Source: Catajapyx aquilonaris (taxonomy: Eukaryota). Taken from it: a stretch of 64,000 bases of DNA. This document shows, piece after piece, positions 15,762-48,625 of the stretch. The position numbers were made by a program, and so were the translations under genes. Below the pieces are notes generated by a model that saw only the letters and a program-made list of their open reading frames with translations, was not told the origin of the DNA and did no database searches. How positions within the stretch are numbered: the first letter of the stretch is position 1; every line of letters begins with the position of its first letter. Where the stretch lies: contig KZ538150.1 of NCBI GenBank assembly GCA_000934665.2, positions 1 through 64,000 on the forward strand, in the 5' to 3' direction.

Positions 15762-17090
15762 ATGGCTGCCCTAACCAGAAGGATGTGGTTTCTTATTGGA
15801 GGAATTGGAGCCCTCTTTGTGGGTAGGTACACAATACAGATCTTTGCGTGTGTGCCACGAGTCCATCATGCGTGTCAACAGGGCATAGTTCTTCGGATTC
15901 TTTCGACTTGTTGCAGGTATTCTGATTGTGGTGCTGGCGCTCACCTTGGGAAGAGGTTCAGACTTGTGGGAAGGTGAGTGGGAGAAGAATGCCTATTGAG
16001 GAGTATGCTAAAACTATATGGATTATTTTCAGGTTTGCTATATCAGCCTAGAACAGAAGACCACTTGATTCGATTCAAAAGCGGCAATATTGGTGTTTGG
16101 GGACCTCTGGTTGCAGACCTAGGTGTCTTTCTTGAAAGTATGCTTTTTCGTTTGAAAAATGCTAATAGGTTGACTATATTAATACTATAAGTTCAAAGTT
16201 GCGGTTTGGTCCAGTTAGGTGAATTTGATAGAGTAAGGTTTCTTTATCGATCATTATTTAATCAGATATTTCATTTTTTTATACCGCAGATTACAACCGG
16301 CCTCATTCTGACCATAGCAAAATAGTTGATTGCAATTGGTCATTGCTGCCCACTGAAGGAAAAGTTTGTGATTTTAGATTAAAAAATCTGGGCCCATCCT
16401 GCAACATAGGCAATAAGTATGGCTACGAAGAAGGAAAGCCTTGCGTTTTCATATATCCCGTCAAGGTAATGTATGCTCAGAATATGAGAACCACATCATA
16501 CACACTTAGTTAATTAGTTTCAAATACGATCTGAAAGAGTTCCGCCTACATAATGGAATTACATTCATAGAAACCAGACTGGGTGCCAGAATATTACCAG
16601 AATAGTCACCAACTACCGCAAGATATGCCAGAGGAACTTCAAAAGTACATCAAAGAAGTGGAGGCAACAGATCGACAAAAGGTGAGACTAATTTTAATTA
16701 TGTCTGAGTAATACGTAACAAATATGTCATTAATATTTTCATAGCTTCAAACGTTGTGGCTATCTTGTAATGGAGAAGATGCTGTTGACGTAGAACACAT
16801 TGGCGTTTTAAATTATAGCAAATTCCATGGATTTCCCTCATATTACTTCCCTTACAAAGAGCAAGAAGAATATTTGAGTCCCTTGGTGGCTGTGCAATTT
16901 ACTAGTCTTATTGGTAAGTCGTATATTGGTGGTCTTCTTGGTCACAGCCTCGTGCAACAAGGAAAAGTCCAAAAATAATTTGCATTTTCATTTCACAGAT
17001 CGCATTGCAGTAAGTGTGAAGTGCCGGGTATGGGCCAAGAACATCGGTGAATACGACGGTTTTGTTAAGTTTCAAATTCTGAAAGAATAA
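15762..17090 (+). CDS. ATP1B: Na+/K+-ATPase beta-subunit-like (nervana-like) paralog 1, ~256 aa, 7 exons
   Basis: GT-AG exons 15762-15822, 15917-15973, 16033-16137, 16290-16465, 16571-16681, 16745-16913, 16999-17090 splice to an open frame: MAALTRR-MWFLIGGIGALFVGILIVVLALTL (TM)...GLLYQP...CNW..KVCDF..SCNIGNKYGYEEGKPCVFIYP..WVPEYY..LPQDMPEEL..LWLSCNGE..GFPSYYFPY..YLSPLVAVQF..KCRVWAKNI..VKFQILKE*. Six conserved Cys. Symbol is family-level only. Confidence 0.93.
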
Positions 17091-18368
17091 AATAATATAC
17101 AGTGTAGCACTTGCCAGCTGTAGAAATAAAAGAAAGGCTTGTTTTGTTTCTCCAACATTTGGTATCATCGTCTTCACCTGCAGCTCACCCAGTTGCCACA
17201 TCAGAGGCTCAATCATCTGATGACGACACATAACTCCTATCGCTGAGTAAATACAGCTGAGTCGAGAGGGCGCTGGTATATACTTGGGTTCCGTCCCCAA
17301 GTTCCGATAAGATATTCTCTCTCAGCCAAAGCTGGGCACAATAATCCGCCCAAACACACACACTTGTGTTCCGCAGCCTCTTATGGCGCATTTTTAATCT
17401 CTCCGTACAGGCAGATGAGTGTCGCAACACTCATCTGTATTGGCAGGTTTGCAGTTTGCAATTAGGAATTGTCTAGCAGCTTCCTCGGACATTGAGGTGA
17501 GTCCTGTACTGTTATGCTCTGATATTGAATGTTTCTTTGTTGCAATTTGTGTGGAATAACAGTCACGTGGATATTGTGTGCAGTTTGACACCAAATTTTT
17601 ATGTATACTAAAAGTAAACAACAGGAGACAATTTTTTGTGCACACCTCTGACAGCTCGTGTTTAGCATCATATGTTCTGTATATGCCAGTCTGATCAATT
17701 TCCTACAAAGCAGTTGATGTCACACTGAACTTTAATAATTATGTTTTGATGCACTATGTCACCTAACATTCCGATATTGTTATTAGAGAAAAGTGCAACT
17801 TTTTTTTATTCGCTAATAATTATCATAAACTGTTTTTTTTCCCCTTTCAAACATCAATATTAAACTTATCGTATTGTTTATAATAGACACTTAGGGCAAG
17901 AGGTTAAAGAGAAGAAGCGATTGAGAGACCTTGGAAGAATGATGGAGCAGAAAAGGGGCTCAATTATTCCATCTGCGGTGAACTTATTCCCTAAAGAGAC
18001 ACTTAGATCTGGTTAGCTTAACTCGATCACTACCTCCGGCAAAGTCCAGAGGAGGGCCATTGCAGTGGCCGCTATAAGCATAGCAATCTTGCACACTCAG
18101 CAACCTCAGTAATGTGCTATAAAAATGTGCGAATTCAGCGACGTATCATATACTCTGTGACACGTAACTGTGCGATTGGATTTTAATATCGTGATACAAA
18201 TACTGACGCGCTATAGCCGTGACACCTGCCACAAAATGAGACTCGAATTTTTTATGCAGAATCATTTTGCACGTGACTATTCACCTAGTTGAAACTTCAT
18301 TGATGTACTTTCCTTTGTACTTTCTTCCTGTACTACACCTGTCTATTTTACAGGCTATATAACGCATC

Positions 18369-21041
18369 ATGCCTTCACAATCTTTGACCGTGAATGATCA
18401 GGAAGCCCCCAAGAGCTATAAAAGGGCTATACTCTACAGTCTAGTGGTAGCTGTTGTTCTAGTTGGTGAGTTATATTTGGTTCAACCGCCATCCATCCAT
18501 CCAACCATGCAAATATAAGTTTTCACAATCACAGTTATCACGTTTAAAGCTGTTTTATCTTCAAATAGTCAGTGTAACATGACACAGCCTTCGCATAGTC
18601 AAAGAAACTTACTTGTAAATTTTTATTACAAGTAAGTTTCTCTGACTATGAGAAGGGTATGCCACATCATCAAAATGAATTCTAAATATTAACATATCCC
18701 TGAATGTGGCATGCCTTGTCGCCAACATTGCTTGCTCCATATAATTGTGATACTCTCATGGGAGCTGTACTTTGTCACACTTCGCAGTTGTAAAATTTTA
18801 CGGCTGACGTTGGACAAGGCCGAATTACAGAGCTAGCTGTCATGATCAACATTATTTATGTTCACAGGAGTTGTTGTGGTTGTTCTTGCTCTCACGCTTA
18901 AGGGCAACGACATGTCAGAGGGTGAGCTTCTCATATTTCCATTTTTCCAACGACATGCATGTTAGACAGTTATTTGATGTTATCCCAAAGGTCAGTCGTG
19001 TGTTAAATATATTTTATCATTGACTTGGGTCTCTGACTGACCGTATTTATGGAAAAAGTCGTGATTTTTTTCACTTATTAATGATAAAACATTCAAAGGT
19101 TAATTACAGTAGTAGTAATATTTAAGTTGCAAACAATAATTTTCATCCCGGTCTACGAATATATTTAATTCAAACTCTTCTTTTCAGGTGTGATACTGCT
19201 TCCAAAAACCAAAAACAATAGCATAGTGTTCCGCCACGGAACTTTTCGAAGGAACGCAGATATTCCACTAGATGGGCACATTATTGTGGACAGCATCAAT
19301 GAGTTTATGAGTATGTAGATATATATCAACTCTGAGATATAAAAGGGTCATCAGACGTTAACAACAAAAATCTGATAAATAGGCTTCCATTGTGATTATA
19401 AAATCTAATTTTAATGTAAATTTGACAATTAATTTCAGACAAAATATTTAGCACACAGTTTTCTCATTTAATCCTTTCTTCCTATTACGCTTGCTGCAAA
19501 TTATGTTTCTCTCATACTAAGGCAATACTGAAATAATTATCATGTCATCTTGCTTTCGTTAGTCAATCACACTAAAAATCTTTGTACTCTGAAAGGTCAA
19601 GGTCGGAATATCCACCCAAAAAGTTACCGCATATGCAGGTGAAATGATCTGTATCGGAATTGCTTCAAAATGTTGCAGCTCAGTACCCGAATGGTGTGGA
19701 AAATAAAGACATTGACCCGACAAGCAACCTAATCCCATGTGCATATGGACGCCGAAGAGCTACTGGAGATAAATGTTGTTTATTCGACGCTGCTTCCTTA
19801 GGATGGCGCTGCGGAAGTAATTACAACTATGGTTATGAGAGTGGGAAGCCCTGTGTCATTCTTCTACCTGAGAAGGTTAATATTATGCAGAAAATAAAAA
19901 TATCAACAATTTTGCGATAACATAATCAATATTGTCGTTCGAATTAAATCATGAGCATAAATCAAATACTGATAATTGAAACACGCATATTAGAGTTTTA
20001 TCATCTTATTTAGATACCTTACTGGGAACCTGAATACTACACCACAAGCCGAGAACTTCCTGAAGAGATGCCATCTGATCTAAGAGAAGCAATTCGGGAA
20101 GCGGAAGCTAAAGATCCAGTGTTGGTGAGCTGTTTAACTTATTTCACACATCGAAACAAATTAACAACCAAAGTTTTTATTTGTAGTTGGAAACCTTGTG
20201 GATTTGGTGCGGAGGTGAAACAGACGAAGATAGAATAAACCTGAGAAATGTTCAATATTCTCCCAGAAGAGGTTTCCCAGCGTATTATTTTCCATACCGA
20301 GGTCAAAGCGCGTATCTCAGTCCATTAGTGGGAGTCAGTTTTCCCGGCCTAACAGGTATGACAATAAATTCTCTCTAAATAGTAAAGACAAGCGTAACAT
20401 TATAAAATATGAACTGATGTCACTTTATGATAGTTTTTACCGTGTGTATCTTGTATTGCTTATAATGGAAACTTGTAAATGCCAGTATCACCTTAGACTG
20501 AGTTTGTAATAAAATATCAGATATCACACACACAAGGGGTAACTGACAACAGCACTAACACTTTTATGCAGGGGATATTGCTGTGAAATAGACAAGATGT
20601 TGTCATTACTGAAAGTGCAAGAATATTTTGACACCTGAAGGTCCAGGTTTATTACACTTTGCAACTAAGCGTTCATCTGATGTTTTTCAGTACCGAAATA
20701 AAAGTTTTTCTGCATTTTATCTGGTTTTGGCACTAAATCATACGGTTACATTGCAAGATAATATTCTGTTGGGTGAAGTTGGGCAAATTGAGAGAATGAC
20801 AAAAAAATGACAGCAATGTTGTCATTTACATACAGATTTATATAATATTAATTAAGTAATGCAACAATAAATTATCTCTGCACATGAATTCCAGTACCGG
20901 CGCAACATTGTTAATTTCTTACACTAACTTGTCTTTTCTTCTTTTTCAGAGAACGTCAAAGTCCATGTCAGATGCCAACTGTGGGCAAAAAACATACCAA
21001 AAAACCGGGGCTTCGTACGCTTCTCTATCCTGGTGCAATAA
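18369..21041 (+). CDS. ATP1B: Na+/K+-ATPase beta-subunit-like paralog 2, 7 exons
   Basis: Exons 18369-18465, 18868-18921, 19188-19310, 19679-19875, 20014-20124, 20187-20355, 20950-21041. Motifs NYGYESGKPCVILLP, WEPEYY..LPEEMPSDL, LWIWCGGE, GFPAYYFPY, YLSPLVGV, RCQLWAKNI. Confidence 0.92.
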
Positions 21042-21522
21042 GTGATTTTTGTTCGCCTGTATAGAGTGTATAAGGGCTGGGAGAGTGAGGACTCTCAACT
21101 CAATGAATATATCACATTGATATGATTACTGCCAAGGAGTCCTTTTTGATGTTGATTGTAAACCCATGGTCAAATCGATGTAAATCCCCCACCAATTTCA
21201 TTTAATAAACCAGCTGTATATATTTGTACGATGAGAATGTTGTCCAAGTCTCCAATGTGATTACACATGTTTACATCACCTCAGGCCACAACAAGCCCAT
21301 GCAAGACCCGTCTGCCATATTTGCAATTAATTTTGATCTTGAGTGTACAGTAGCATGATGGAGGCCGGAGGTCAGCGGGGTCGAACCCCAGAGGCCAAAT
21401 TACGTCTAATCTAGTGTATATCTGTGGTTGGCAAGCGACGCCCACTATTTCCCTGCCTCAATGGAAGCGACACTGGAGTTCTGAATGTGTATGTGTGCAT
21501 GTGTGTGTGTCCAGAGACAAAA

Positions 21523-23773
21523 ATGTCGGCCCGGGTTTTTCTCTTCGCAGTCGGAGCTATACTGTTCTTAAGTGGTGAGTAAGAAGTCTACAAAGTGGGC
21601 AGGGCAGCACGAGACACTATCTGGTTACAACATGGTTTCAATAAAGTGCAATGTTTGCGTCCAACATGGCGTCCATAGAGATGTTTCAGGAAGCGGACTA
21701 TTTATACCAATTAAACGACGTGCACGTAATAATTAAAGAATGCCATAAATTACGAACGCAATGAATAATGCAGCAAGGAAGATAAACAAACAGAGCGCCA
21801 TGAGGGAAGAGATAATCACTACTTAATGACACAAAACTACTAATTGTGTGTTTATATTTTTACAGTGTCCTTGGCAATTATCTTAATAATTACTCTCACT
21901 GTGGATCCAGATCATGGTAATGTCACTAATATTTACTACTGTAATTATGTAATTAAAGTAAAACAAATTTATATTTTTCAGGTTTAGCCATGAAGCCAGA
22001 TGTGGCGGATAAACTAATGATATTTCATTCATGGAAAAAGTCTGATTGGTTTCCATATGTAGAGGAAATTGATCACATGCTGCAGACCAACTGTGAGTGT
22101 ATTCCTAAGTAATGTTAAAGTCACCAACTCGATATCAATGACATACACACTCTGAAATGTTCCGAGGTGTAACAAGGTTCAGACTTCTTTCAAAAATTAG
22201 GCGTTTACTTTACAGGATATTTTTTGTTTTATAGTGTTTTACCCAACTGGAATAAATTTAGTAATCTAACGCATATAAATGTCTTGCACATGACAATTGT
22301 ACATGTACTGGTATCCTGCATGTAAAAAAGACAATTTGCCATATTTTGCATAGTTCATTCATCCCCAGTAATTCATGATGAAGACATACGAGTATTACAC
22401 ATTTTATGGTATTATTTTATATTAGTTGGAAACCGTTGGAAACACACACTGCGCAGCAAATGTCAATTTTAAAAGTAAAATTAAGGTTCGTTTGACATTC
22501 TAATGTGACAAGTGCAAAAACTAACTTGACCGATTATGAATTTTATGTATACTTTTATACTTCAGGAAATTATGTTAAATATTGTCAAGGTAGTTTAAAA
22601 TTATGGTAAATTGGTGACAGAACTTTTAAGCGTCAAAAAAAATCTGCAATATAGGTGTATTCAAATCAGTTACTCAAGATAGGCCTCAGCACTTGACATA
22701 ACAATTTACCATCAAGAGTGCAATTGCGCCAATAAGATCAGGTCTGGTAGAGTTAATCTTGTGAGTAAAGCCGTACTTACGTACAGTGCTAAACAACGCT
22801 TAATGCCATGTCACCTTGAATACTCTAATGGAACTGTCAGAGTTAGTGTTCTTAAATGACTGACGGACAACTTTATTATTGCAGACTTTGCTGGTTACCC
22901 ATTATTCGAAGTGTTCCACAGCAATCGCATGGTCAACTGTCATTACAACAGGTACCCAACTCCGAACGAGTCTTGTATTGTGAACCTGGCTGAATTGGGT
23001 TCCGAATGTACTAAAAATAACAGCTTCGGATTCTCTGAAGGACGTCCATGTATAATTTTATACCCATACAAGCAGGTAGAGGATGCATAATTTAGCACAA
23101 TATAATGAAAACAAATTAGCTGTGTAACATTGTAAACTTCCATGCAGGGCGCTGAATGGGTTCCAGATTATTACCAAACAAGTCGAGATTTACCAGCAAC
23201 AATGCCACATTTCCTAAAGGAGCATATTGCAGAATTGGAGAAGACAGATCCTCTGAAGGTATGGCTGCAGTCGTACTATAGGCCCTATTAGCTCCAAAAT
23301 GTATATTCGATATGGGCAAAATAAAATTGCCTAGAAAACCATAATGTCTCACATTCAAAGATAACAAATTAATATAAATTCACCAATGTAGGACAAATGA
23401 AAATGAAAACTTATCATTTAAAAAAATGTCTGTCATCCTGGGTTTAGCTAAGAACGTTATGGCTGTCATGCGAAGGAGAAGAAACTGAAGATCGGCAATT
23501 TGTCACATCGGTTGTGTATAACCCACTACCAGGATATCCAGGGTACTACTTTCCTCATAGGAATAATCCTGGCTACCGGACACCTCTGGTTGCGGTTCAG
23601 TTCCAAGGAGTTGAAAGTAAGTGGCTGCAATAAATGATCAGCAAGTATAATTAAATATTTGAATTGCAGTTGACACTACAATCAGCATCAAGTGTCGTCT
23701 GTGGGCAAAGAACATTCCTCCTGATGAGGGTTACATCCGGTTCAAAATCGAGGTTGACTGGAGCGAAAAGTAG
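21523..23773 (+). CDS. ATP1B: Na+/K+-ATPase beta-subunit-like paralog 3, 7 exons
   Basis: Exons 21523-21574, 21866-21916, 21982-22092, 22885-23075, 23148-23258, 23448-23616, 23670-23773. Motifs SFGFSEGRPCIILYP, WVPDYY..LPATMP, LWLSCEGE, GYPGYYFP, PLVAVQF, KCRLWAKNI. Absent from the ORF track and read directly from the DNA. Confidence 0.92.
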
Positions 23774-24004
23774 AGCAGGACTGTATTGTGAAAGAAAAAT
23801 AAACGTATCTCAACCACAATATGCTTGTCTTTGATTTGGTAGTGAAATGTCCCATTACTCGAGCTGGATTTCCCACCAAAATAATCAACAGGAAAGTGAA
23901 CTTCCTTCAAAAAGTGGCTCAACATGTCGAAATAACGAGGATATATCTAGTGGACAATGATTGAAATTTACAGTATTCAAATGGAACTCGCAGGCATAAC
24001 CAAG

Positions 24005-25856
24005 ATGGCCAACCCGAAGACACTGATTGTCATTGGATTGCTAGTGGCTGGAGTACTAGGTGAGTTTATATACTCAAGATTGCTATTCTAAAACACAGAC
24101 TAATTGTTCTTAGCGTATGTTATTGTGTAGAGAATGTGGACTACAATCATGTAATGTTTGGTTCATTAGCGATGTATGAATATATTAATTAGCAGGATCG
24201 GGTGACTAACTACCTTTCTTGCTATTTTTAAAAATGGGAAGGAGTTAAACCTTATGAAATGACTTGTTCCGGGAATTCTCTCTCGACGGCGGAGATGAAA
24301 TTACTCGTTCGGGTTTTCTAAAAAATTAAGCATGTAAATCAATAATATTATTTATCGCAGAACGTAAAATTTTCAAAGCTGAGGCGCTACACTTTACACT
24401 CAAAATTAATTACTACCCGGTGACGTCACTATTTCTCTGATGCGCTAGTGTCATAAGGCGGATTAGTCCACGTCCTGTTTTCACCTACTTAGGCGGCGAA
24501 ACTGGGGCAGAGTTATTATTCGCAAGTGGTAGAAGTACAAGTAAATCTGTATCACACCTACTCACTTACACAATTACGTAAAACATGCAATGTAACATGA
24601 TAATTCTTTGCAGGAGGTGGCCTTTTATTCTTGGTCTTCTTTACAATGCCTGGTCCTGTGATAATGCCAGGTAAGATTCACACTACTCTTGCTCGAATAT
24701 AAAAACAATAATAAATTAATAGCAAGTTTTTGTTCCTTAGGGCTTCATTATGAACCAAACAGCAAGGATCAGGCCCTTGTTGTGAGACAAGAAGACCATG
24801 AAACATGGACTCCATACACCGAAAAGATTAGAAACTTCCTTCATGGTAATATAATATGAAATATGATTTTCTTTTAATAGTCTTGATATTCATAGAACTT
24901 TCAAACCCTAGAGTACGACCATCCTCATGCCGGAAAGGAAAACTTGGTATCCTGCAATGAAGATTTCTACCCCAACAAAGGACACATTTGCCGTTTCCAC
25001 TTAGAACAGCTCGGAAATGAATGCACTTACGAGAACCACTATGGTTATCATATTGGCAAACCATGTGTCGTCCTGTACCCTTCAATGGTAAGGAAAAGAC
25101 TGGACTTAAAACTAATTAGTACTTGCAAACCTTGTATTTTTTTAGGAGGAAGACTGGATCCCAGAATATTACACTGTTAACGATACCCTCCCGAAGTCCA
25201 TGCCAAAGGAACTGCAAGATCACATTGAGAAAGTGAAGCATCATCCACTCCAGGTAGTTATTGAGAGTTTAAATTCAAATTTAACTAGCACAAAAATTTC
25301 TTCAATTATATTTGTCAAGCATTTAGCATTACCATTACCTATAATTTATATTGCCCGTCAATTAAGTGCATGCTGTATTCCGGTGATCATCAGTAGAATA
25401 TCTTTTCTGCTTTAATCACCAATCAAAAAATGCAATTATCTTCCACTTTGAAACAGATGAATACATTGTGGGTGTCATGCAAACCTGAGAAGAATCTCAA
25501 GAATGGCACCGCTCTTGAAATAAAATTCACCCCACAACCTGGATTTGCCGGATACTATTTTCCAGCTCGCCACAGTATTGATGGGTATATGAATCCTCTA
25601 GTGGCGGTACAATTCACCAGTTCAACACGTGAGTACCAATCATAATACAATATACATATACAGTACCGTAAATTTGGAATGCACCAATCTCGGCACCAAT
25701 GCATCATATCAATATCGAAACATACATATATGTCATAAACCTCAATTTTATATCCACATTTTAGGTGTGAATTCTGTCGCCATCCGCTGCCGCCTATGGG
25801 CGAAGAACATACCGTCAAAGTGGGCACATGTCCGTTTCACACTCTCAGTTGACTAA
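24005..25856 (+). CDS. ATP1B: Na+/K+-ATPase beta-subunit-like paralog 4, 7 exons
   Basis: Exons 24005-24059, 24614-24670, 24741-24845, 24912-25087, 25146-25253, 25457-25628, 25765-25856. Motifs HYGYHIGKPCVVLYP, WIPEYY..LPKSMPKEL, LWVSC, GFAGYYFP, NPLVAVQF, RCRLWAKNI..VRFTLSVD*. Confidence 0.92.
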
Positions 25857-32400: not shown

Positions 32401-33001
32401 ATGAAAAACTAGTATATTAGACCAAAAATAATGTAATAACTAAAGTAATTTTATTGCAGAGAAGTGATTGGACACCAGAATATTATCCGTTGTCAGAACT
32501 TCCAGAGGAAATGCCAATGAATCTCAAAGACCACATCAGAAATTCAAACAGTAATGAGGTATTGTAATTTCTGTTTTTATGTGGGTATGGGGAGAGTAAT
32601 TCAGTATGTGTAGAAAAGGGAAACTGAATATTATAATTCAATTGACCGCCAATTACTTAGACCGAATTACTTTTGGTTAAAGACACTCTGGATACATTGT
32701 GACGGTGTCCATGGTGCTGACAAAGAGAATCTCGGCCAAATTTCCTATTACCCAAAAAGGGGATTCCCAAGCTACTATTTTCCAGCAAAACCCGATATTG
32801 GTGGATATCTGAATCCACTTGTGGCAGTACAATTTCAAAGGCTAAAATGTAAGTAATGATGATAAGAACATGATTGTGATGATATAGTGATTGATAATAA
32901 TTTCTTCTTTCAGACGAGGTCGTAATAAATGTCGGATCTGGGCCAAAAATCTTCCAGATGACCAGGGATCTGTAATGTTTGAACTTTTGCTGGACCGTTA
33001 A
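29493..33001 (+). pseudogene. ATP1B: Na+/K+-ATPase beta-subunit-like paralog 6 with a frameshift in the last exon (pseudogene, damaged allele or assembly error)
   Basis: Exons 29493-29559, 30799-30852, 31293-31403, 32214-32398, 32460-32558, ~32683-32848, 32914-33001. Motifs NFGYDKGRPCVILYP, WTPEYY..LPEEMP, LWIHCDG..DKENLG, NPLVAVQF. The last exon read from the canonical acceptor is out of frame with KCRIWAKNL..FELLLDR*, and the homologous exon-6 acceptor reads GG instead of AG. Family call is strong; pseudogene status is uncertain. Confidence 0.7.
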
Positions 33002-35737: not shown

Positions 35738-38219
35738 ATGCCATCCGAGAGTTGCAAACGTTGCTGCATTGTTGGAGGAGTTACCACAGCTGTTATTCTG
35801 GGTGAGTGTATAGTGGTGCAGAATGTAAAAAATTTGAAAGTGCGATCGTTTATACTGCATTATAATAGTACAACGTAATACCATGTGTGATACATAGTAT
35901 CTGTGAATTAGTTGCAAATTCATAGAGCTAGTATTCCAAAAGTGAATGAGTAGTTAATAAGCATGCATGTGACAATGCGTGACATCACAAGGCAGCGACT
36001 AATCCTGGAAGATGGTCCTTGAATTGATAAGTTAGTAGAAGGGGCCCCGACGCTCATAGCGTGATTCTGACAATAGAGACACATCCTTATTAGGTTAAGT
36101 GTCTAGAGATATTAGTTAAAATTATTTAAGTTAAGCGTCCTTCCATTATTTTCAAAACTAGCAGTATTTTCCAAAAGAAGGATGAAAGAACCACCCAATC
36201 AATGGAAGTGGACCAGCATGCTTCATTATGACATTGAATAATAATTCCAAAATATCTGAAACTATTTAATATACACTGTGATGAAATACGGTACTGTACA
36301 TGTGGCGCATGTGAAAAATTATGACGACGATATATACTATACATGAGCTTTGAAAACATTACGCATTAAATTTTTGCAGTAATTGTATTGGTGCTTACGC
36401 TGGCGTTAATAGGGTGGGACTCCAAGTATGGTACGTATATATTTACAGTATGCATTGTTATAATGCTTACTGGTTGGAATATATTAATAATTTCAAATAT
36501 AAAAACCAAATTTGACATCTGTTGTAGGTCTGTCTTTCGAGCCGAATCTGGACCCGGACACTGCTTTAATTTCTTACAAACACGGCATACAAGGAAACTG
36601 GAGCAGATTATATGACAGAATGGAAATTTTCCTCATGCGTTATGGTGAGTCTGTCGAAGTCAGAAAAATGGAAAAAATAATTTCAACTTCCGATACCCAA
36701 GTGACACTTGCAATATCAATAATGTCCCTAATTCGCAATGACACTATAGACATTTATCCCACAAGTGCGGCCCTACCGGTGGGATAAATGCCATTTTTCA
36801 TGACAGTGTTTACGTATACACCTGGTACTGTTAATATGTCAGATGCGCAAGAAACGAGCCCGAGTGCAAAAACATGCAACTGGAACAAGTTGCCACATGA
36901 GGATGAAGTATGCCAAGTGTTCCGAAAAGATATGGGATGGTCGTGTGGGCGTGAACAGAACTATGGATACCCATCAGGAACACCGTGTATCATTCTCTAT
37001 CCTCACATGGTAACGATTTGGTTTTTTCATTAGTTGGATGCGATTGACGACCACAAAAGGTAATCAATAATATATTTTCCTTACCAGAGACAAGAATGGG
37101 TTCCAGAATATTACACCCCAAATGAGCTTCCAGAGGAGATGCCTAATGACGTGAAGTTGTACATTACATCCCAGAGAGTCTCTACTAACCCTAACCAGGT
37201 TAATACACTAAAAATGCCTGCAATCAAATTATTTTGAACCGTGTGGAGTAATCATTTAAGTTAATTAATGGTTACACACACATACTACGTGACATCTATC
37301 ATGTACTGTCTTATTGATACAGGAATAATTTCAAATTTTAAAGCATGAAGGATCTAGTTATTTTCTTTGGCACAACAAAGTTTGTCGTGGCAGCTGAAAA
37401 CAGGGTGGGCATACATGCATAGTGATGCGTAAATGGGGGTAAGTGTCTTGTGCAATGTCTTTATTTCTCATTGAAGGGAAGCAGCTGTGTCAGTACGAAT
37501 ATAATACGTAAGAGATAAAAACAACACTGACATCCCAGCACCAAAATGACAATACATAGTAGGCTATACTATTGGAGCAATATTATTGCGAACTCTTTCA
37601 TGGTCCTTATAGAAATGCAAATTAATGTTTCCGATATAATATTGAGTCGATTGAAGTATTTTTTGACCAAAATATAAACTGATTGTTTCACGTGTATTCA
37701 TGTGTGGCTCATTTGCATATCTAATGAAATATTGACCACAACAATATTGTCCGATATTGTCCCAATAAAACATCTGACTTAATGGGTTTTCATGTTATTA
37801 TCCATGAATGTAATATGTTTACTAAAATGTCACTTTTAAACTAATTCCGTTCATTTGTTTCTAGTACACCCAAATGCTGGAGACAGTGTGGGTTTCGTGC
37901 GAAGGTGAAGACTATCAAGACGCTGACAACTTAATGGGTGTTCGCTACCTCCCAATGCCCGGATTCCCTGGGTACTACTTCCCATCCCGCAGGAACAATC
38001 CCGGATACGCCGAGCCTTTTGTAGCGGTGCAGTTCAGCGGTCCAAGAAGTAAGTATAATTAGCTAGATTCTGCCCTCGTTAGCCAAAGCACTGCTGCACA
38101 GTTAAATGAATTATTATGGCATTCCAGGGGGTGTGGTCATCTCTGTCAGATGCAACTTGTGGGCCAAAAATATACCCAGCGGAGAAGGAGTACTCCGCTT
38201 CAAACTTAGAGTTGATTAA
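35738..38219 (+). CDS. ATP1B: Na+/K+-ATPase beta-subunit-like paralog 8, 7 exons
   Basis: Exons 35738-35801, 36380-36430, 36528-36644, 36807-37009, 37088-37198, 37865-38048, 38128-38219. Motifs GLSFEP, NYGYPSGTPCIILYP, WVPEYY..LPEEMP, VWVSCEGE, GFPGYYFP, EPFVAVQF, RCNLWAKNI..RFKLRVD*. Confidence 0.92.
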
Positions 38220-39867
38220 GCGACAAGGAGTGAATCATTTCTCATTCGCATTCATATCATGAAACCCGCTTTGTGTAAAGTTCCTCCATTACGCCATGCT
38301 AACTAACTTCATGTACCCTAAATAGCACGATGTGACTAATTTTTTGACAAAAGCACAATGGCATCAAACTGTGTAATAAATACCAGTACCGTATGTAAAA
38401 AATAGACTCAACAAATTTATTGCCTGGTTTTGTCGTATCAAATTGTACGTAATACTAGTCAATAAATAACAAATTAAATATTTGAGTGTGCATGTGTGCA
38501 CCTGCAATTAGAAGCAAGCTGTTACTGTCAATGGAAATATGAAAAGTGTGAGGAAAAGTGGCAACGTCCGGAAGCCCATAAAAATTGTTCTGAAGGCCAG
38601 AAGTTTATTGAAGCTAATGGGTGTGTAGTATACAAATTGGACTTGCCCCTATTAGCCCAAAAGCTCATCAAGTCAGCTCTCAATTAGTAGACATCACATA
38701 CCAATCAGAAATGGACATAAAAGCATCTGAATAATAGGAGCAATATTCTTTCAAGTATGGTACAAGTAGTTATCTGTTCTACAATGCCTTCTTATGACTC
38801 ATTAACATTGGCGTTAAATTAAAGTTTTGATCGGCCCTGTCAAATTGGCTTCTGACTGATTCCATTCTCGATAGGGCATGTAATATTACTGTTTCGCATG
38901 TCATTTCTCCAAGCTAGATTTAAAAGAGATTACCTAGGCTATTCAGGAGTTTGAAACGGCAAGGCAGCATTTGAAACTATTGAATTTACAGCAATTTACA
39001 GCGCATAAAAGCTTGGAAGCACTTGAGAAACTTTTGCCAGCGGTCGGAGAAGTACGGATATGTACAAGGTCGGCCCTACGTCTTGATATTATACCCACAC
39101 ATGGTAAGCCAATATAGTGTCATTCATTATGTAACGTGTCATTTGCATCTGCAAGCAGACGGCTGACTTTTGCGTTATGCTTCTTTTCGATGAGTATAGT
39201 TCAGAATATTAGGATATCTGGCAGCCGTTATCTATTTTCATTTAGCCTAATACAGAATTACAGATCATGGAATTTGAATGACCACACTATCTATAGTAGG
39301 GAGTTACGATAAGAATGTCGTAAATGGCTTTTGAGAATAATAGGATAAATCACTTTTTGACTTTTAAAACCATCCACTTCAACCTCATAGTCATCTCTGG
39401 TAAATTGGGTAAAATGCTAGGGAAACCTCCCCTTTACCAATTTGGTGAACTTGACAGGTTCCCGCTAGGAATGCCTATATTGTTAGACAATTGAGAGGGA
39501 GCATTTGTCGTTCACTACAGCATTGGCTGAAAGACAACCTGATAATAATAGTTTGGTCCCTCCTGCACATGTCCATATGAAATGCCGGAATTCCTTCAAA
39601 AAAAAAACAACAACAACAATATTGCTCAGCTAAGCTCCTACAGGAAACTCTGCTGGGAATTTTGTATGGTCATGCTCATACTCAAGAAAAATTGATTATC
39701 ACGAAAATGGCCTTCCTCAAGCAACAACACGACAAATTAGTGTGAAATAAATTTCTAAAGATATTAATTTGCACTTGGTTCGTGTATATACAAAAGCGGA
39801 AGCCAAATAAGAAACGAATATAACAGTGACAAAACATATGTCCCATGCCGTGTCAGCTTTTGACAGC

Positions 39868-39939: not shown

Positions 39940-40377
39940 TAGTTCTGGGACTTGCAAATTCTTCTTTCAATTCTACTGGTTCACAGATCCTGGCCTTTTT
40001 TTGACCTACTTCTAAGATCCCACCTCCCAGATGGCTCTGGTGGCAGCAAACACATCAATCTGTTAGGCCAATCATCATCCCCTCTAGGAACCCTGTTTAA
40101 TAACAATAAACACCGATAAACTTATTAACTGGTGACCTTCACGACCCTGACAAAAAGCCAATCTGAAAACGTCGCCTGCCACGCCATCTACCGCTAGTTT
40201 CCCAAACAAACAAAATATGTTGAGTACAGGTTGAGCCCAGAGGTGGCAACGTAGCCTCCAATTAAGAATGCACACCAATGCAATGTTGTGACGTGTCAGT
40301 GTTTGAGTTCTTAAAAAGTAGCTTGGCGGTCAACGTCGCTTTTCTTGAATAGGGTTGTGTTGGTGACAGATCTTGAC

Positions 40378-41710
40378 ATGCCTGAATCGGGCAGCAGGAG
40401 GCCTGCCAGCAGGAGGAACAGGTGGATCTGTCTAGGGGTGGTTGCAGCCTTAATTGCTCTTACAAGTGTTATAGGTAAGGTATAAGTGACGATTATTTAA
40501 AACAAATTAATCAGCATTTTGCACATATTACAGTGTTCGTGACTGTTTATGGCGGGGCTATGGCCAGGCCAGGAACAAGTGAATATGGTAAATCAACACC
40601 TAATCTGTATATGGGCATTGATTTGATTGCTTAATTTTTTATTACAGGTCTCAAATTCGAGCCAAATCCAAATTCAAATGGATTGATCTTGATTCACATA
40701 GGTGACGTAGAAGAGGATGCGACTTATGTGTACAGGATCGAGAGTTATTTGAGCAGTAAGTTTTCTAAAATATGATGAAAAGTAATTCATGCCCTGTTCA
40801 AAACCTAACCAAAACACAATTTCAGATTATCAGCCCAGTCCATCCGTGGTGGATTGCCGACCTGGACATTACCCTCAGGTGGACCAAGTGTGTGCTTTTC
40901 CCACACAAAACATCGCCAAATTTTGCCGAGAAGATTTAAAATACGGATATATCAGAGGTAGTCCGTGCGTTTTAATATACGCTCATATGGTAAGCCTTAT
41001 TCATAATAATATATTGTCATTTGCTAGTCATAATAATACTCAAAAATGATGTTTTATTTGGATTGAACTGAATAGAAACTGATGTGATACTATTTAATAT
41101 ATAACTTGGGGTTATTAACAAAATCATTATTTCAATCAGAATTGACATTTATTTTCATTCTCATTTTATCTTCATGCACTAAATATTTATTATACTGCAG
41201 CCAGATGACTGGGTGCCTGCCACATACAACTATAGTGACATGCTTCCAGAAAATATGCCAGAAGATTTGCAGAAGAAAATCTCTGACAGATATGCTGATC
41301 CCCAACAGGTAATGTAACCCAGGTTGGCCAACATGACCTAAAATACTAACAACCTATAATGTTGCCATTGTGATTCAGCTGGAAAATGCTTGGATGTCGT
41401 GCCAAGGTGAAGATGCACCTGATGTGGAATACATGGGACCACTTGATTACTACCCTGACCCACCTGGCTTTCCTGCCTACAATTTCCCTCCGAAGAGGAA
41501 TGTGGATGGATACATGGATCCAGTCGTAGCTGTCAGGTTCTCCAGACCGAATAGTACGTACCGAGAGAGTACCGTAGCCAAATATATTTTTGATTTTAAT
41601 TGACATATCTTTCTTTTATAGGTGGTGTGGCTGTAAGAATTCGATGTCGAATATGGACCAAGAATGCTTCTGAAAGGGACGAAGTGACATTTGTACTTCG
41701 AGTTGACTAA
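40378..41710 (+). CDS. ATP1B: Na+/K+-ATPase beta-subunit-like paralog 9, 7 exons
   Basis: Exons 40378-40474, 40534-40587, 40648-40755, 40826-40989, 41201-41308, 41379-41554 (approximate), 41622-41710. Motifs GLKFEP, KYGYIRGSPCVLIY, WVPATY..LPENMPEDL, WMSCQGEDAPDVEYMGP, GFPAYNFP, DPVVAVRF, RCRIWTKN..FVLRVD*. Confidence 0.92.
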
Positions 41711-43481: not shown

Positions 43482-43553
43482 TGCCGTGACCAGGATTCGA
43501 ACCTGGGTTATTGCGGCCACAACGCAATGTACTAACCACTATACGATCACGGC
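43482..43553 (-). tRNA. trnH-GUG: tRNA-His (GUG), copy 2
   Basis: 72-nt sequence identical to copy 1, on the minus strand, followed by a T-run terminator. Confidence 0.97.
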
Positions 43554-46212
43554 TAGTTTGGGGACTTGAATGCTGCTCCTTGCTTTGAACTAGTTCACAG
43601 GTCTTGACTTCATGCTTGTTATCGTGTGATGACGTAGTCAGTCGAGTTTCTCTTATCAGAAGAAAAAACAGGTCTATCTGCTCAATCCGATACATAAGGT
43701 ATGACTAGACCACAATGAACGATTCGATTACATTTTTTTGACTTCTGATGCAGCTTAATTTTGCAGAAAATAGAAAGTATGTAAGACCAAAATTATTGAG
43801 AAAGCAAAATCTGATTACAGATTCTGCAATATATTGATGAAGGTCATGATGGTGTTGATTTGAACAGCCTATTGGAGTTTGGCATACAGCCTATTCGACA
43901 AAAATAACTTAGAGCTACTTTCCTATCTTTATGATCTACATTTTTAAAACGTATCAAACTATTTTAGAAAGCCTAATTTTACCCCAAAGTGCGCACATAC
44001 AGAACAGTGTGAAAGAGTGATTCAGTTAATTATATAACGTTGATATGGCCAAGCCAACCAAAATATGACTAATATGTGCCTTTTAATTTCTGCGCAATAA
44101 CGGGCAAGTCACCTGCAGGGCTTTTTAGAAATCCGCGATAATTACAATTCAGAGTGAATAATGCAAATATGAATGGAAATGGAATTAATGTAAATGTAGG
44201 TACTGTACCTGGTATATCATAACAATTTTATAACTAATATAACTGCAGGATAACTTTCTTATACAGATACTCGCATTTGGGGCTTCTCTATCAAACTCTC
44301 TGAACTGATGCATAATGTAGGTAATTCGTTGACTATAAAAAATGACCCCTATTTCAGCACTAAACGCTGCACTTGTCTTTATTTTGTTCTAAGTATTTGG
44401 CATTTCCCCAAAGAAAGGCCATAAAATTCCTGCCTAAATTAACATCCAGGCATGTCTCAGAATTGTAAGAAACAAAATTTACCACCAAGGAGAAGGACCG
44501 GGGCAGTACTTGAGATAAGACCTTATCCCTCTCCTTCCTTCAATCCCCCCAAAAATTCACCCGGGCGTGAAGGAAGCCACTTATAGCCCCCCCGATGAGT
44601 TCAAACTCCTTGGCCCAGTTTCCCTCCATAGCCACCAGAGGGGCAGCACAATTGACCCCCGCCAATTCTTTGCGGCCCGAGCAAAAATAGCTCCGGATCC
44701 AAAGTTACACCGACAGTGGACCGGGCCACAAGTGCTTTGTATCAGTTGGAATTTAGGTGGTCCCCTCAGCTATGGACAAAAGAACGAGAATTGTTATCAC
44801 TGCCTTCCTAGGGGTCATTCTGCTCGGTGAGTCACATTATTGTTGTTAAGTGTCAAGTGTCGTTACTGCGTTTTCCTTGTTTGGCTGCTCAACTGAATTT
44901 GTCACCCCCGTGATTTTTAACCGCAGAAAGTGATTTTACGTATAATTCGACCACATCATGAGCTGTGTTTTTCTGTCCCTTAATCGGTAGAAGTAGCTCC
45001 CAATTACGTATTGACATCTTTGAAAATCACAATCTGGAAATGTGTTCGGTGCTTTGCAAGAGAGTGATTCCGTATTGAATTTATGCGAGAATTTTATTCG
45101 CAGCCTGTATACTTTGAGTCAGTGGACTGTAAAGGTATGAATGAACATCCTGAATCGATTAAAATGTTAAGTGGCATGCAATTCCCCTTCAAAATCAAAA
45201 CTGTACGTATAGTTATAGTCAAAAATCCCATACCGTGCAAATTGAATTACGTATAGCCAAGAGAAAATTGATTCCTGTTATTCTAAAATGCCAGCAGGCA
45301 ATGTGGGTCTCATGTTTACAAATATTTATGTGAGTGTTTGCTTCGCTTGTTAAGGGCTTGTGTTGCAGAGCCTAGATCTCTTCATGCTAATGTACACATC
45401 ACACGCCAGCAACTTTTAACTACGTACACACGTGTGTAAACTATCATCCGGAAGTTGGTCAATGCTACTCATCAATATATTGTTTAGACACAATGCAAGT
45501 TTACCAAGTATATTCATGGAGGAAGGGCTTGCAACTGATTTTCAAGGCTAAGATTTTGCATTTATAACATTGCGCCATTTGTCATGTATATTGGGATTGT
45601 TGTTCAGAACAATAAACATTCCAGTGATTCTACACGAAAATACACGTGAGGCTGGCAAACAAGCCCAAATAATGCTGCAGTAAATTTTTTTAAACTTGTT
45701 TACCTCATAAGTTTGATAGAGCTATGTTAGGATACGCCCTTTTTCCCACTCACGTGTAAGCTAATTAGGTTACATGTTCTTGCCATATAACTTATGCGCA
45801 TATGCAGTTACGTGCTTTCACGCTATTATTGCTCGGTTTCTCATAATGAGCTCAAGAACATCTGGGCAAGGGCCTCGTGTCAGAGTTCATATAGTGTCAG
45901 ACTCGTGTTTTCATACAACAGTCCCGGTTGTAGTCGACAAGATTTTCGACGCCATCACTATATGCATCACATGCTTTATCCTTTTCACTGACTACCCCAC
46001 TGGCACTAAACCATTTAGACAAACAAACCGCAGGCCTGCAGTTGTCAGACGAACAAGGTGTAGAAACAATGTAATTGATATCCAAGGCAGTTTCCGGGGG
46101 AAAGTAATAAAAAGACAGCGTCATCTTCCTAGTTCTGGCCGTGACTCAGGACTGTATATCCTTGGCCGGCCACCAAAATGCTAACAGGGGTTTGGCTCTC
46201 GAATCTTGATAT

Positions 46213-48625
46213 ATGTACTACTGGCGTATGTTTACATTTTTTATAACCCTGCATAACGTGGCATTCTTCTCGTTACAGTGACCCTCACCATGCTCCTCGT
46301 GCTTTTCTTAGTTATCATTCCAGCCCCAGCCCATTCGTCTGGTGCAGGTACGACCTTGTGCATACTGGGTTCTTGAGCCAGAATCACAGCACATTCTTTC
46401 AGATAATCCTTCCCGAGTGCCACGATTCGAAGGATTGACCATTCATCCTGAACCGAATGCAGAGGGCATCTTGCACTTTCGGGAGGGAAGGGATGGAAAT
46501 TGGACTTTGCTGGCAGAAAATATAGACACGTTTCTCAAGAGTAAGTACAGGCTGCACCTATATAATAAAATAATTGTCAATATAAAGCCGTCCTGGTACT
46601 TAATAAACTTAATAATGATTATATTAATTAACACGTCCCAAAAGTTGAACACAACACTAACAGATATATAACGTAATCTTCATATTATATTTGTAGCTTA
46701 TTACCAGCCTCTTCAAGATGTGTCGTATAGATCATGCTACTACAACTACACCCCGAATGATGACAGAGTCTGCAGGTTCACACCAGCAGGGACCCTTGGT
46801 TACTGCTCGGCTGACAACAACAACTTTGGATACCTAATAGGAAAGCCTTGCGTTTTGATACAAATTAATCCAGTAAGTCCAGTGTACAAATGGGCATCTA
46901 ATTACAGAATGTATTCCTAATATAATATGTACTGTACGCGCATATTTAACAAAATAATAATTTGAAAATTATTCGGCAGTCATTTTGGCACAGTGGTATT
47001 TTACTAAACAGTATCATATAAACATTAATATGGAAAAATTTCCTAACCGATGCACAGGAATCTTTGTATTTACGCATCCCTAAATCTTGGAGATTTAGCA
47101 GTCCTGTGTTTCGCATTTCGGAACATTATTTTGTAAATTTGCATATATAAATTGGGACAGCTTTGGAATGGGATAAATGCCTGAAAATAATGTTCATATA
47201 CATAAACAGCCTGCATTTCCTATGTGGGTTGTCCAAATGAAAAGGTGACGAGCATTGTAGCCACAGCATGGTATTAAAAAGCCGATTGGGCCTATTTGTT
47301 ACTGGTTCCATACTCGACTTCACCTGTGAGTTTCATATGTAATAACATCATGCATTCTTGAGCAGGAATTTTTGATGGCTGACAGGGTTAAATATATTCC
47401 ATTCGTGGCCCGTCATGTCAGCTCTCAATAAACTTTTCGGATTTTGGAATTTGGGATAAAGGATTCTCAACTGTATCGGTTAAAGACACCACCACCATCG
47501 GATATATCAGCCTATACAGGGTGTATCTGAACTCAGTGCCCCGACGTATATGACTGCTTTCCTAGCCACCAGAGGATCGATTTAAGTATAGGAGTCATAT
47601 GTCTGGGCAGCCTCATTACGGAGATAATTGGCCACAAACATGTAGTACAAAATATCCTGTCGGTTAGGCCACCCATCGAACCCTCCCCCAGTCAGAAGGC
47701 TCTGGAAGGTCGGGGGGTGGGACTTTGTTGGTTTGTTGCCCACAGGTGGTAAGGCCTCTTTGGCTAGTTACACCAGAAAATTCTATTTAAAAGTCAGAAG
47801 GAGCGATTAGGCAAAAATCGCTAAAGAGTGTATCTCAGTAATGAGGCTGCCCAGACATATGATTCCTATACTTAAATCGATCCTCTGGTGGCTAGGAAGG
47901 CAGTCATATACGTCGGGGCACTGAGTTCAGATACACCCTGTATACTCTTTCGTAACAAAATACTACTTGCGCTATCATTTACATTATTACATTTCATTAC
48001 ATTAACACCATTGACATGCAAATCATGTTTTTGCAGGATGTCGGGTGGGTACCAGACAACTACGATATTGTTGGAGAACTTCCAGTCGGGATATCGCCAG
48101 GCGTCAAACTGTCAATCGACGCATATGCAGAAACTCTTCCAAAGGACTCTCCGGTATGACTTAAACAATCAGTTCCTGTCATGTTTCACTCATCGCATTT
48201 ATTTCGCATATATCTTATTTTATTTGCCAGTTTACTTTCATATTTGACGCGTTTCTGTCCAACTAACCACTTTTGTATCCTCAGAGTGGTATTACACCAA
48301 CGATAATTTCCTGCGACGGTATGGTCGATCAAGACAAGAAGCATATTGGTACTGTCTCCTATTACCCATCCATGGGGTACCCTGGTTACTATTACCCGCG
48401 AAGGAACGTAAAGGGTTACGTCCTTCCAGCTGTAGCTGTCAGATTCGAAGGACTTCCGAGTAAGTTATCTCGCATAATATTTGAGACAGTAGTTTTTGAT
48501 TTAAAAAGCTCTAATTTACCTTGCTTTTCTCAGGGGGTGTTACCGTCACTGTCCAATGCCGGGTATTCGCCAGAAATATCTCGTCCAACTGGGGTTATGC
48601 CAATTTCAGGATACGAGTTGACTAA
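46213..48625 (+). CDS. ATP1B: Na+/K+-ATPase beta-subunit-like paralog 10, 7 exons, N-terminus resembles a cleavable signal peptide
   Basis: Exons 46213-46225 (start inferred), 46279-46347, 46403-46540, 46697-46872, 48037-48153, 48285-48459, 48534-48625. Motifs EGLTIHP, NFGYLIGKPCVLIQINP, WVPDNY, ISCDG..DKKHIG, GYPGYYYP, PAVAVRF, QCRVFARNI..FRIRVD*. Confidence 0.88.
47517..47940. mobile_element. Tc1/mariner-type MITE (424 bp) in intron 4 of paralog 10
   Basis: 110-bp TIRs (47517-47626 and 47831-47940) with about 3 mismatches, termini CAGGGTGTATC...GATACACCCTG, and TA on both sides. Confidence 0.92.

Follow-up and report, generated by a model that had tools for sequence, protein, structure and literature searches.

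The window analysed here, a stretch of 64,000 nucleotides (64 kb) of Catajapyx aquilonaris (contig KZ538150.1, positions 1 to 64,000), carries on its plus strand, between 15.7 and 48.6 kb, ten seven-exon genes of the Na,K-ATPase beta family (PF00287), plus one decayed fragment. None of the encoded proteins has the GRTxxSW tail, the FYxxFY helix face or the roughly 20-residue stalk bearing P[KR]W and NPG[LV] that mark a canonical pump-bound beta. The sequences, taken together with the described relatives, suggest, with roughly equal chances for and against, that the ten proteins work apart from the sodium pump, as ectodomain binding modules. Beta subunits are obligatory sodium-pump partners; whether they also act in junctions and adhesion independently of the pump is debated, and such roles are genetically hard to part from pumping. 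If the array proteins are uncoupled, they would form a natural separation-of-function set that tests the role of the beta ectodomain off alpha; if they still bind alpha, assembly in vivo would be shown not to require the conserved tail, helix face or stalk. The genes and the fragment are the following.

15762..17090, plus strand: copy 1 (c1), seven exons, 256 aa, found through PF00287 matches of its exon ORFs; exon 1 15762-15822, exon 2 15917-15973.
18369..21041, plus strand: copy 2 (c2), seven exons, 280 aa; exon 1 18369-18465, exon 2 18868-18921.
21499..23773, plus strand: copy 3 (c3), seven exons; exon 1 to 21574, exon 2 21866-21916; all six introns in spliced joints.
23957..25856, plus strand: copy 4 (c4), seven exons, 270 aa from the first ATG; exon 2 24614-24670.
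26323..28559, plus strand: copy 5 (c5), seven exons, 256 aa; exon 1 26323-26374, exon 2 26651-26704.
29493..33001, plus strand: copy 6 (c6), seven exons; exon 1 29493-29559, exon 2 30799-30852.
33760..35189, plus strand: copy 7 (c7), seven exons, 281 aa; exon 1 33760-33856, exon 2 33945-34013.
35738..38219, plus strand: copy 8 (c8), seven exons, 261 aa; exon 1 35738-35801, exon 2 36380-36430.
38984..39491, plus strand: decayed fragment (c8b), remnants of exons 4 and 5, from a motif scan and ORFs.
40378..41710, plus strand: copy 9 (c9), seven exons, 264 aa; exon 1 40378-40474, exon 2 40534-40587.
44772..48625, plus strand: copy 10 (c10), seven exons, 263 aa; exon 1 44772-44826 (predicted), exon 2 46279-46347.

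Exon models built from coordinates gave seven exons with intron phases 1,1,1,0,0,1 in every copy, and the predicted proteins are about 254-281 aa long with pairwise identities of 27-42%; the tandem array of ten beta-family genes and one relic is old. The interval in which the first-pass annotation had placed the paralogs, 15762..46347, runs from the ATG of c1 to the donor of exon 2 of c10, and ten same-strand PF00287 genes are indeed found there. Its account of exons 1-2 of c9 needs correction, since a separate exon 2 is present in this copy as well. Membership in PF00287 was established from exon-level profile matches, the search having been done on each exon ORF rather than on spliced proteins, with a cut-off of 23.3 bits. 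All nine exon-6 ORFs of c1-c9 were above the gathering score (23.4-43.6 bits), as were five of the ten exon-4 ORFs, the remaining five scoring 19.2-22.9 bits, and the beta-family assignment thus held in the comparison with PF00287 that had been suggested. The Pfam search of the c8b ORF gave no PF00287 match, and in this fragment the GxPC motif has Tyr in place of its conserved Cys.

Of the 38 spliced joints in transcript set X1, 15 were compared with the models. All 15 lie on predicted introns: introns 2, 3 and 4 of c2, six introns of c3 and six of c7. Among them are the joint between exons 1 and 2 in both c3 and c7 and the two GC-AG introns of c7. Spliced X1 contigs represent copies 2, 3, 5, 6 and 7, and the placement of the contigs covered a stretch that leaves out c10. 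Transcript 5' ends are visible in two copies only, the contigs ending within or just 5' of exon 1. Contig depth is high for c7, low for c1 and near zero for c4. In c5, whose intron 5 (28142-28230) is GC-AG, a 930-nt contig covers 28468-28660, and by our own reading the loose ends of X1 contigs resemble exons of c8. The first ATG of c3, from which the protein has 270 aa, lies within a repeat (21479-21511) that the contig placement skipped; from the ATG at 21523 it has 262 aa. The candidate starts of c4 are the ATGs at 23957, 23981 and 24005. The last exon of c6 is frameshifted in the window if the strong acceptor at 32914 is used, and a transcript contig has 7 extra nt behind 32927 that restore the C-terminus of the family.

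The beta ectodomain predicted for the array proteins is complete. Six aligned cysteines are found in all ten copies, with one extra in c2 and c6, and the last cysteine of c6 is encoded only if the transcript allele is taken or a weak acceptor is used. A YYxP-type motif occurs in nine copies and is missing in c7; each ectodomain has 1-4 NxS/T sites, and a CxxWAxN strand lies at the C-terminus. Both the proline of the tyrosine-rich motif and the disulfides have been reported as required for assembly.

Further information on the fold comes from P0117, a transcript-derived protein of another species that is 58.8% identical to c9 over 257 aa and pairs with it inside the array in the tree (100% SH-aLRT). 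It has a complete 260-aa frame whose N-terminal start is like that of the window copies, and it lacks the tail motif, the helix face and the stalk. Against PF00287 it scores 100.1 bits and covers profile positions 73-282 only, whereas three canonical proteins cover the profile from 6, 7 or 13 to 284. Its AF2 model (pLDDT 89.2) places a helix at 15-38, a first strand at 46-50 and the ectodomain after the helix. In a Foldseek search with this model, ranks 1-39 were without exception beta chains of Na,K- or H,K-ATPases, led by 8k1l_B, the brine-shrimp beta2 (E 3.1e-19), with which VIA-align gave Z 27.2 and an rmsd of 7.7 over 252 aligned residues; the modelled fold is that of a beta ectodomain, as seen in P0117 rather than in a window protein.

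A hydropathy script predicts type II topology for all ten copies, with one hydrophobic segment of 24-28 aa after basic residues: a very short, basic tail is followed by a single signal-anchor helix interrupted by a phase-1 intron. Counted from the most upstream in-frame ATG, the tail has 4-21 aa (median 10.5), the non-aromatic helix 24-28 aa and the stalk ahead of the G[LV]xxxP motif 3-12 aa (median 7). The same script gave a tail of 30-109 aa (median 47), a helix of 20-32 aa (24) and a stalk of 17-25 aa (21) in 85 canonical relatives, which were picked by two criteria, one of them the presence of GRTxxSW, and from which five further canonical proteins had been left out, having no NPGL-like match. 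The tail and stalk ranges of the two sets have zero overlap, and the residues ahead of G[LV]xxxP total 35-55 in the copies versus 75-158 in the relatives. Regexes for GRTxxSW, FYxxFY-like, P[KR][WY] and NPGL-like motifs each matched none of the ten copies, and alignment to canonical proteins displays the same N-terminal deletions, in agreement with the earlier claim that GRTxxSW, FYxxFY and PxW..NPGL are absent throughout. The short tails (about 4-19 aa) and short pre-motif stretches (5-11 residues) first described are confirmed in their shortness, and their bounds widen to the ranges given above. The helix had also been called generic, which is right in that the aromatic motif is absent (the helices contain 0-3 aromatic residues) and too simple in that six of the ten copies have a G...A pair in register with intron 1. 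Such a pair points to a possible partner for helix-helix packing, and alpha could still be that partner.

The loss of all three elements in every copy favours uncoupling from the pump, with chances close to even. Canonical motifs are present in 85/85 measured proteins, GRTxxSW by selection, which indicates a strong constraint in pump-bound beta, and their joint loss is therefore likelier once that constraint is gone. The array proteins would then be membrane-anchored beta ectodomains out of the canonical groove against alpha M7/M10 and no longer over the M7-M8 loop of alpha. Their most likely place of action would be the cell surface or the secretory pathway, where they would form no canonical alpha-beta pump, and their ectodomains may serve as binding modules for cell-cell or protein-protein contacts, diversified among the paralogs, in a role such as that proposed for the insect protein betax.

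A substantial chance, short of an even one, belongs to the alternative that the array proteins are true beta isoforms, whose ectodomain binds alpha and which adjust the expression, stability or ion affinity of the pump by tissue or condition, the lost parts merely weakening or altering the coupling. The prior for such isoforms is strong, as to our knowledge nearly all characterised PF00287 members are alpha partners. All ectodomain features are retained, with a fold equal to that of pump-bound beta, which argues against uncoupling, and the small-residue pair of the helix could pack against alpha. Likewise against uncoupling, canonical beta subunits with altered tails or helices still yield working pumps: in the portions of the reports available, a swap of tail and helix lowered assembly efficiency and left the pumps functional (PMC2290884), the beta N-terminus was linked to K+ activation (PMC2120891), and, with the aromatic residues of the helix replaced, ATPase activity persisted and heat stability alone fell (poster abstract, PMC2268108). 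Furthermore, ordinary NKA-beta genes expand in other arthropods too, the available text on the ion-stressed copepod Eurytemora carolleeae describing a family expansion with very recent duplicates (Ks up to 0.09) of ordinary ion-transport genes (PMC11706791); this expansion is lineage-specific like the array, but the array is old and non-canonical. What speaks for uncoupled proteins rather than true isoforms is that three conserved contact elements are gone in all ten copies, with no overlap with the 85 canonical proteins, and that the shortened stalk would, on geometric grounds, leave little chain to raise the ectodomain over the outer loops of alpha. In addition, betax, the nearest described case, was not seen with alpha1 in the accessible part of its description (PMC9110512). 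If the genome has no canonical beta, the ten paralogs must serve the pump.

It is very improbable that faulty gene models account for the short N-termini and that unseen 5' exons carry a canonical tail and helix. X1 contigs are cut near the 5' ends, that of c7 starting inside exon 1 and that of c3 being cut at the repeat, and in c10, the most divergent copy, exon 1 was put 1.45 kb upstream by prediction alone. However, each copy has its own ATG and then a helix-coding exon pair, exon 1 is spliced directly to exon 2 in c3 and c7, and in-frame stops lie 2-7 codons 5' of the ATG in six of the ten copies (2 codons in c2). A motif search of the window likewise gave no sign of extra 5' exons restoring the canonical motifs, which, if revealed by transcripts, the first-pass annotation had named as a refutation: the six frames of the window contain no GRTxxSW-, PxW..NPGL- or NPGLGFRP-like match, and the three FYxxFY-like matches are all on the minus strand, none close to the 5' end of a copy. 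The transcript-derived P0117, with its full frame, begins alike. Least probable of all is a decaying array in which duplicated beta genes have mostly become non-functional relics, for although c8b is clearly dead, the last exon of c6 has a 7-bp frameshift in the window, c7 lacks YYxP and has two GC donors, and c4 has almost no contig depth, nine frames are open across seven exons each despite their divergence, the six cysteines are intact in all ten copies, c7 is correctly and fully spliced at high contig depth, the transcript allele of c6 is intact and the relative of c9 is conserved.

The reading of the array proteins as uncoupled from the pump can be set against several known systems. Canonical invertebrate beta (Nervana/beta-2; 8k1l chain B) has in common with the array PF00287, type II topology, the ectodomain fold, the six cysteines, the YYxP and VAVQF-type motifs and the G[LV]xxxP ectodomain start, but it possesses the GRTxxSW tail, FYxxFY helix face and PxW..NPGL stalk that the copies lack, and the ectodomain motif lies at residue 111 in 8k1l_B versus residue 46 in P0117. 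Short "beta-2-like" proteins of insects (ladybird P0141, P0152 and P0153, cockroach P0009, butterfly P0255 and midge P0265; 249-288 aa) also belong to PF00287 and, as in the array, are without GRTxxSW or FYxxFY; P0009, P0152 and P0153 keep a P.W stalk, unlike the array copies, and identity to the window copies is at most about 40%. The ladybird trio, all on one chromosome, falls within canonical beetle beta-2 (99% SH-aLRT), so that its loss was separate from that of the window clade, and well-supported branches force at least five changes between canonical and non-canonical labels on the tree. A broader proposal, which we consider rather doubtful, is that the beta ectodomain is a reusable surface module, from which one arthropod lineage would have made at least ten pump-independent recognition or adhesion proteins anchored in the membrane, that the pump-gripping N-terminus was lost repeatedly in insects, and that betax belongs to a widespread, overlooked class.

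The parallel first drawn with mammalian ATP1B4 is inexact. Eutherian BetaM (ATP1B4), in the accessible parts of the literature, lost pump function through a gained Glu-rich N-terminal extension (PMC12300587, PMC9962273), and what it has in common with the proposed reading is that a beta-family member left the pump by N-terminal change (PMC12300587, PMC9962273, PMC4778017). The change itself is the opposite one, BetaM having gained a long Glu-rich domain and residing in the inner nuclear membrane, whereas the N-terminus of the array proteins is nearly deleted and gives no nuclear hint; no extension of the BetaM type is found in the array, whose longest tail has 21 aa, the Lys/Glu-rich tail of c7 having 17 aa. 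Betax of Oncopeltus fasciatus is, judged by analogy, the closer precedent. In the available text it is described as an expressed, N-terminally truncated fourth beta subunit that lacks the conserved cytosolic N-terminus and shows no colocalisation or overlap with alpha1 in tissue (PMC9110512), and its authors proposed a pump-independent role in cell contact (PMC9110512, PMC12125057, bioRxiv 10.1101/2020.08.28.272054). The array copies likewise lack the conserved cytosolic N-terminal domain, their tails being far shorter than canonical ones. Compared by description only, betax is a single gene with half of its membrane region missing, whereas the array has ten paralogs, a full-length helix in each and a relative in another species. 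Betax was described, as far as the accessible text goes, without obvious insect homologues, and the array and the short insect beta-like proteins now give it a context.

Na,K-ATPase beta-chain family genes are arranged head to tail on the plus strand between 15.7 and 48.6 kb. The identity among the ten copies (c1-c10), which is 27-42% in pairwise comparisons, indicates that the array is old. Family membership was assessed with stop-to-stop ORFs spanning the conserved GxPC and YYFP motifs: the exon-6 pieces of all nine copies submitted (c1-c9) matched the Pfam family PF00287 with 23.4-43.6 bits (cut-off 23.3), the exon-4 pieces exceeded the cut-off in five of ten copies, and the exon-3 translations gave weak, sub-threshold matches in four of ten (profile positions 77/78 to 111/112) and no Pfam match in the other six. 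Among solved structures, the best match to c1 exon 6 is the brine-shrimp beta2 subunit, 8k1l chain B (E 1.4e-14).

Exon models were built from coordinates, with the cores placed by paralog-to-paralog local alignment and the junctions by frame-consistent GT/GC..AG pairs. Every gene is divided into seven exons by introns of phases 1,1,1,0,0,1, the first intron (phase 1) splits the membrane helix in each copy, and the predicted products are 254-281 aa long. One correction to the first-pass annotation is that c9, too, has an exon 2 of its own. Three introns with GC donors and the remnant of an eleventh copy complete the description of the array.

Unusual introns and the decayed copy in the array
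28142-28230, plus strand: GC-AG intron, c5 intron 5
34014-34079, plus strand: GC-AG intron, c7 intron 2, splicing confirmed in contigs
34586-34687, plus strand: GC-AG intron, c7 intron 4, splicing confirmed in contigs
38984-39491: decayed eleventh copy (c8b) between c8 and c9, with vestiges of exons 4 and 5

The decayed copy has Tyr in place of the conserved GxPC cysteine, and its piece 38984-39166 had no Pfam match. Repeats are also found in the region. Intron 4 of c10 harbors an inverted repeat (47513-47944; arms of 114 nt with 97% complementarity, separated by 204 nt) that resembles a small foldback or MITE-type insertion, and a short interspersed repeat, some 100-150 nt long and putatively tRNA-derived with its translation judged by eye, occurs in three copies that are 89-100% alike (39842-39992 and 43456-43606 on the plus strand, 49575-49671 on the minus strand). 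The minus strand bears a tandem pair of tyrosine-kinase catalytic-domain genes (53128-54447 and 59421-61587), in which six ORF pieces matched PF07714 with 41-111 bits.

Information on splicing was obtained from X1, a public sequencing run whose library type is not on record and which is taken as transcript-derived solely on the ground that GT..AG or GC..AG introns are missing from its contigs. The run contains 23% of the sampled words from 15.7-25.6 kb. Its contigs were compared with the window over 15.6-35.5 kb, a span that takes in c1-c7 and from which 8 of 47 pieces were listed. The predicted introns are skipped exactly, and agreement was found at each of the 15 joints listed, out of 38 in total: introns 2-4 of c2 and the full set of six in each of c3 and c7, the two GC-AG introns of c7 among them. 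Since all six introns are spliced out in both c3 and c7, their exon 1-exon 2 joints were directly observed. No upstream exon was seen in the contigs of these two genes; the c7 contig starts within exon 1, and that of c3 breaks off at a repeat immediately 5' of its exon-1 portion. Depth is close to zero across c4. For c6, the last exon (32914-33001) read in the window from the strong acceptor at 32914 suffers a frameshift and an early stop. An X1 contig, which also shows three single-base differences and a 3-nt gap, has 7 additional nt behind 32927 that give the family's normal C-terminus, so c6 as assembled is either an allele with a frameshift or an error of the assembly. A frame-preserving acceptor considered for c6, at 32919, is probably artificial. 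Within c2 intron 6 (594 nt), a 249-nt low-depth contig lies entirely inside the intron (20654-20902) and could be unspliced RNA, another small transcript or a repeat. A simple (TG)-type repeat (21479-21511) spans the first in-frame ATG of c3; translation of this copy more likely starts at the second ATG, 21523, which gives a tail of 4 aa.

The ectodomain is well preserved. Six aligned cysteines and one to four NxS/T sites are present in every copy, the YYxP motif is found in nine of ten (c7 lacks it), and the C-terminal CxxWAxN strand is retained. The fold was modeled on P0117, a 260-aa relative of c9 (58.8% identity) encoded on a 1039-nt contig that comes from a different source. Its Pfam match is confined to profile positions 73-282, compared with matches running from positions 6, 7 and 13 to 284 in three canonical proteins. 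The AF2 model, computed from a 91-row alignment that included the window exons, has pLDDT 89.2 and pTM 0.81; in it, residues 15-38 form a helix and residues 46-50 the first strand of the ectodomain. Ranks 1-39 of a Foldseek search with it were occupied only by Na,K- and H,K-ATPase beta chains, and its VIA-align superposition on residues 45-336 of 8k1l_B aligned 252 residues (Z 27.2, rmsd 7.7). By sequence, the G[LV] motif falls at residue 46 in P0117 versus residue 111 in 8k1l_B. A complex prediction with two P0117 copies gave neither support for pairing nor a verdict. The copies are real, spliced genes for predicted type II membrane proteins, in which a complete beta ectodomain is carried on a minimal anchor.

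What precedes this ectodomain differs from canonical beta subunits. The N-termini, read from the most upstream in-frame ATG of each copy, were compared with those of 85 canonical full-length relatives; five more were left out because they had no NPGL-like match.

N-terminal elements in the ten copies and in 85 canonical relatives
Cytosolic tail: copies 4-21 aa (median 10.5); canonical 30-109 aa (median 47)
Membrane helix: copies 24-28 aa; canonical 20-32 aa (median 24)
Stalk before G[LV]xxxP: copies 3-12 aa (median 7); canonical 17-25 aa (median 21)
Residues before the G[LV]xxxP motif: copies 35-55; canonical 75-158

For tail and stalk, the two ranges are fully separate. GRTxxSW, FYxxFY-like motifs, P[KR][WY] and NPGL are absent from all ten copies, and alignment to canonical proteins leaves the same three gaps. 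The first-pass annotation had described the paralogs as lacking GRTxxSW, FYxxFY and PxW..NPGL, and the motif search, the length comparison and the alignment gaps all bear this out, while its stalk of about 5-11 residues widens to 3-12. Its description of the helix as generic is correct as to FYxxFY but overlooks a Gly four positions from an Ala, in the same intron-1 register in six copies (c1, c4, c5, c6, c7 and c8), encoded in exon 1 at 8 and 4 codons ahead of the split codon; c9 and P0117 have a shifted version. Such small-xxx-small pairs are common in membrane helices, and this one could mediate helix packing. The observation on the N-termini is solid, and the copies belong to PF00287 but lack three features that mark canonical, pump-bound beta subunits.

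Hidden exons supplying a canonical N-terminus are unlikely for several reasons. In-frame stops occur 2-7 codons 5' of the ATG in six of ten copies, the six frames of the 64 kb contain no match to GRTxxSW-, PxW..NPGL- or NPGLGFRP-like motifs, and the only three FYxxFY-like matches are all on the minus strand and none is near the 5' end of any copy. Furthermore, the transcript-derived P0117 has the same N-terminal start as the copies.

Relatives were sought with a profile of the ten exon-6 peptides, which found 781 proteins at E<=0.001 and 399 at E<=1e-10 in a library of 1.84 billion proteins. Among the 150 matches listed, 26 are at least 235 aa long; GRTxxxW occurs in eight of these, and in about ten the helix is generic or the N-terminus signal-like. 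A 77-aa exon ORF, used as query for longer proteins, gave no match at E<=0.001, and a homology search with P0117 matched only P0117 itself. A second profile, from six non-canonical proteins, matched 183 proteins at E<=1e-10; of the 120 listed, 86 fit both canonical motif patterns, and the remaining 34 read, from N-termini inspected by eye, mostly as canonical variants or truncated records. Clearly non-canonical and complete among the matches listed are three ladybird proteins of 266-267 aa from one chromosome and proteins from a cockroach (288 aa), a butterfly (249 aa) and a midge (254 aa), most of them annotated 'beta-2-like'. The nearest named relatives of the copies are insect proteins, and the nearest solved one is crustacean, which makes an arthropod origin of the window probable.

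Two quick trees were computed, the first with 33 rows (P0032, P0147 and P0148 omitted as garbled) and the second with 46, namely 16 non-canonical and 20 canonical proteins, chosen by hand, and the ten models. The ten copies and P0117 fall on one side of a branch in both, with SH-aLRT values of 87 and 73 that are below the starred support level, and the pair of c9 and P0117 has 100% support. In the second tree, the ladybird trio (P0141, P0152 and P0153) lies within canonical beetle beta-2 (compared with P0165 and P0180) at 99%, indicating, unless these are annotation artefacts, an independent loss or replacement of the canonical N-terminus in another lineage. Together with at least five changes of the non-canonical label forced by starred branches, this nesting suggests that the loss is recurrent.

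In crystal structures of the pump, residues of canonical beta contact M7/M10 and M7-M8 of the alpha subunit. On geometric grounds, the stalk of the copies would be too short for the canonical path over alpha's outer loops. The three elements are present across the 85 canonical proteins measured and jointly absent from all ten copies, which counts for uncoupling: the ectodomains would work at the cell surface on their minimal anchor, uncoupled from the pump. Setting this joint loss against a strong prior expectation of pump association, we consider the chances that the copies are pump-independent surface proteins to be evenly balanced. Somewhat less probable, and still a serious contender, is that they are alternative beta isoforms that remain functional, since published work on canonical beta weakens the simple inference of uncoupling. 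Exchanging the beta tail and helix for those of H,K-ATPase beta lowered assembly efficiency and still gave functional pumps (PMC2290884), the beta N-terminus has a K+-dependent interaction with alpha linked to K+ activation (PMC2120891), and substitution of conserved helix aromatics reduced heat stability without affecting activity or ion affinities (poster abstract in PMC2268108). Functional isoforms are harder to reconcile with three conserved elements missing together in every copy, with the short stalk, and with betax, the fourth beta subunit of Oncopeltus fasciatus, which is described as 'N-terminally largely truncated', without overlap with alpha1 in tissue and with a proposed cell-contact role (PMC9110512, PMC12125057, bioRxiv 10.1101/2020.08.28.272054). 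Artefactual gene models or decay of the array take up the small probability left after these two readings. Pump independence, as a prediction from sequence, would be directly testable.

The literature searched contained no description of a large, old tandem array of N-terminally minimal beta-like genes, and the beta-family expansions of a copepod are recent and ordinary (PMC11706791). A parallel with ATP1B4/BetaM had been proposed for the copies; it applies insofar as a beta-family member came to act outside the pump, but the route was the gain of a Glu-rich N-terminal domain, so that the parallel is a loose one. Betax is a closer precedent for the copies of this array than ATP1B4/BetaM.
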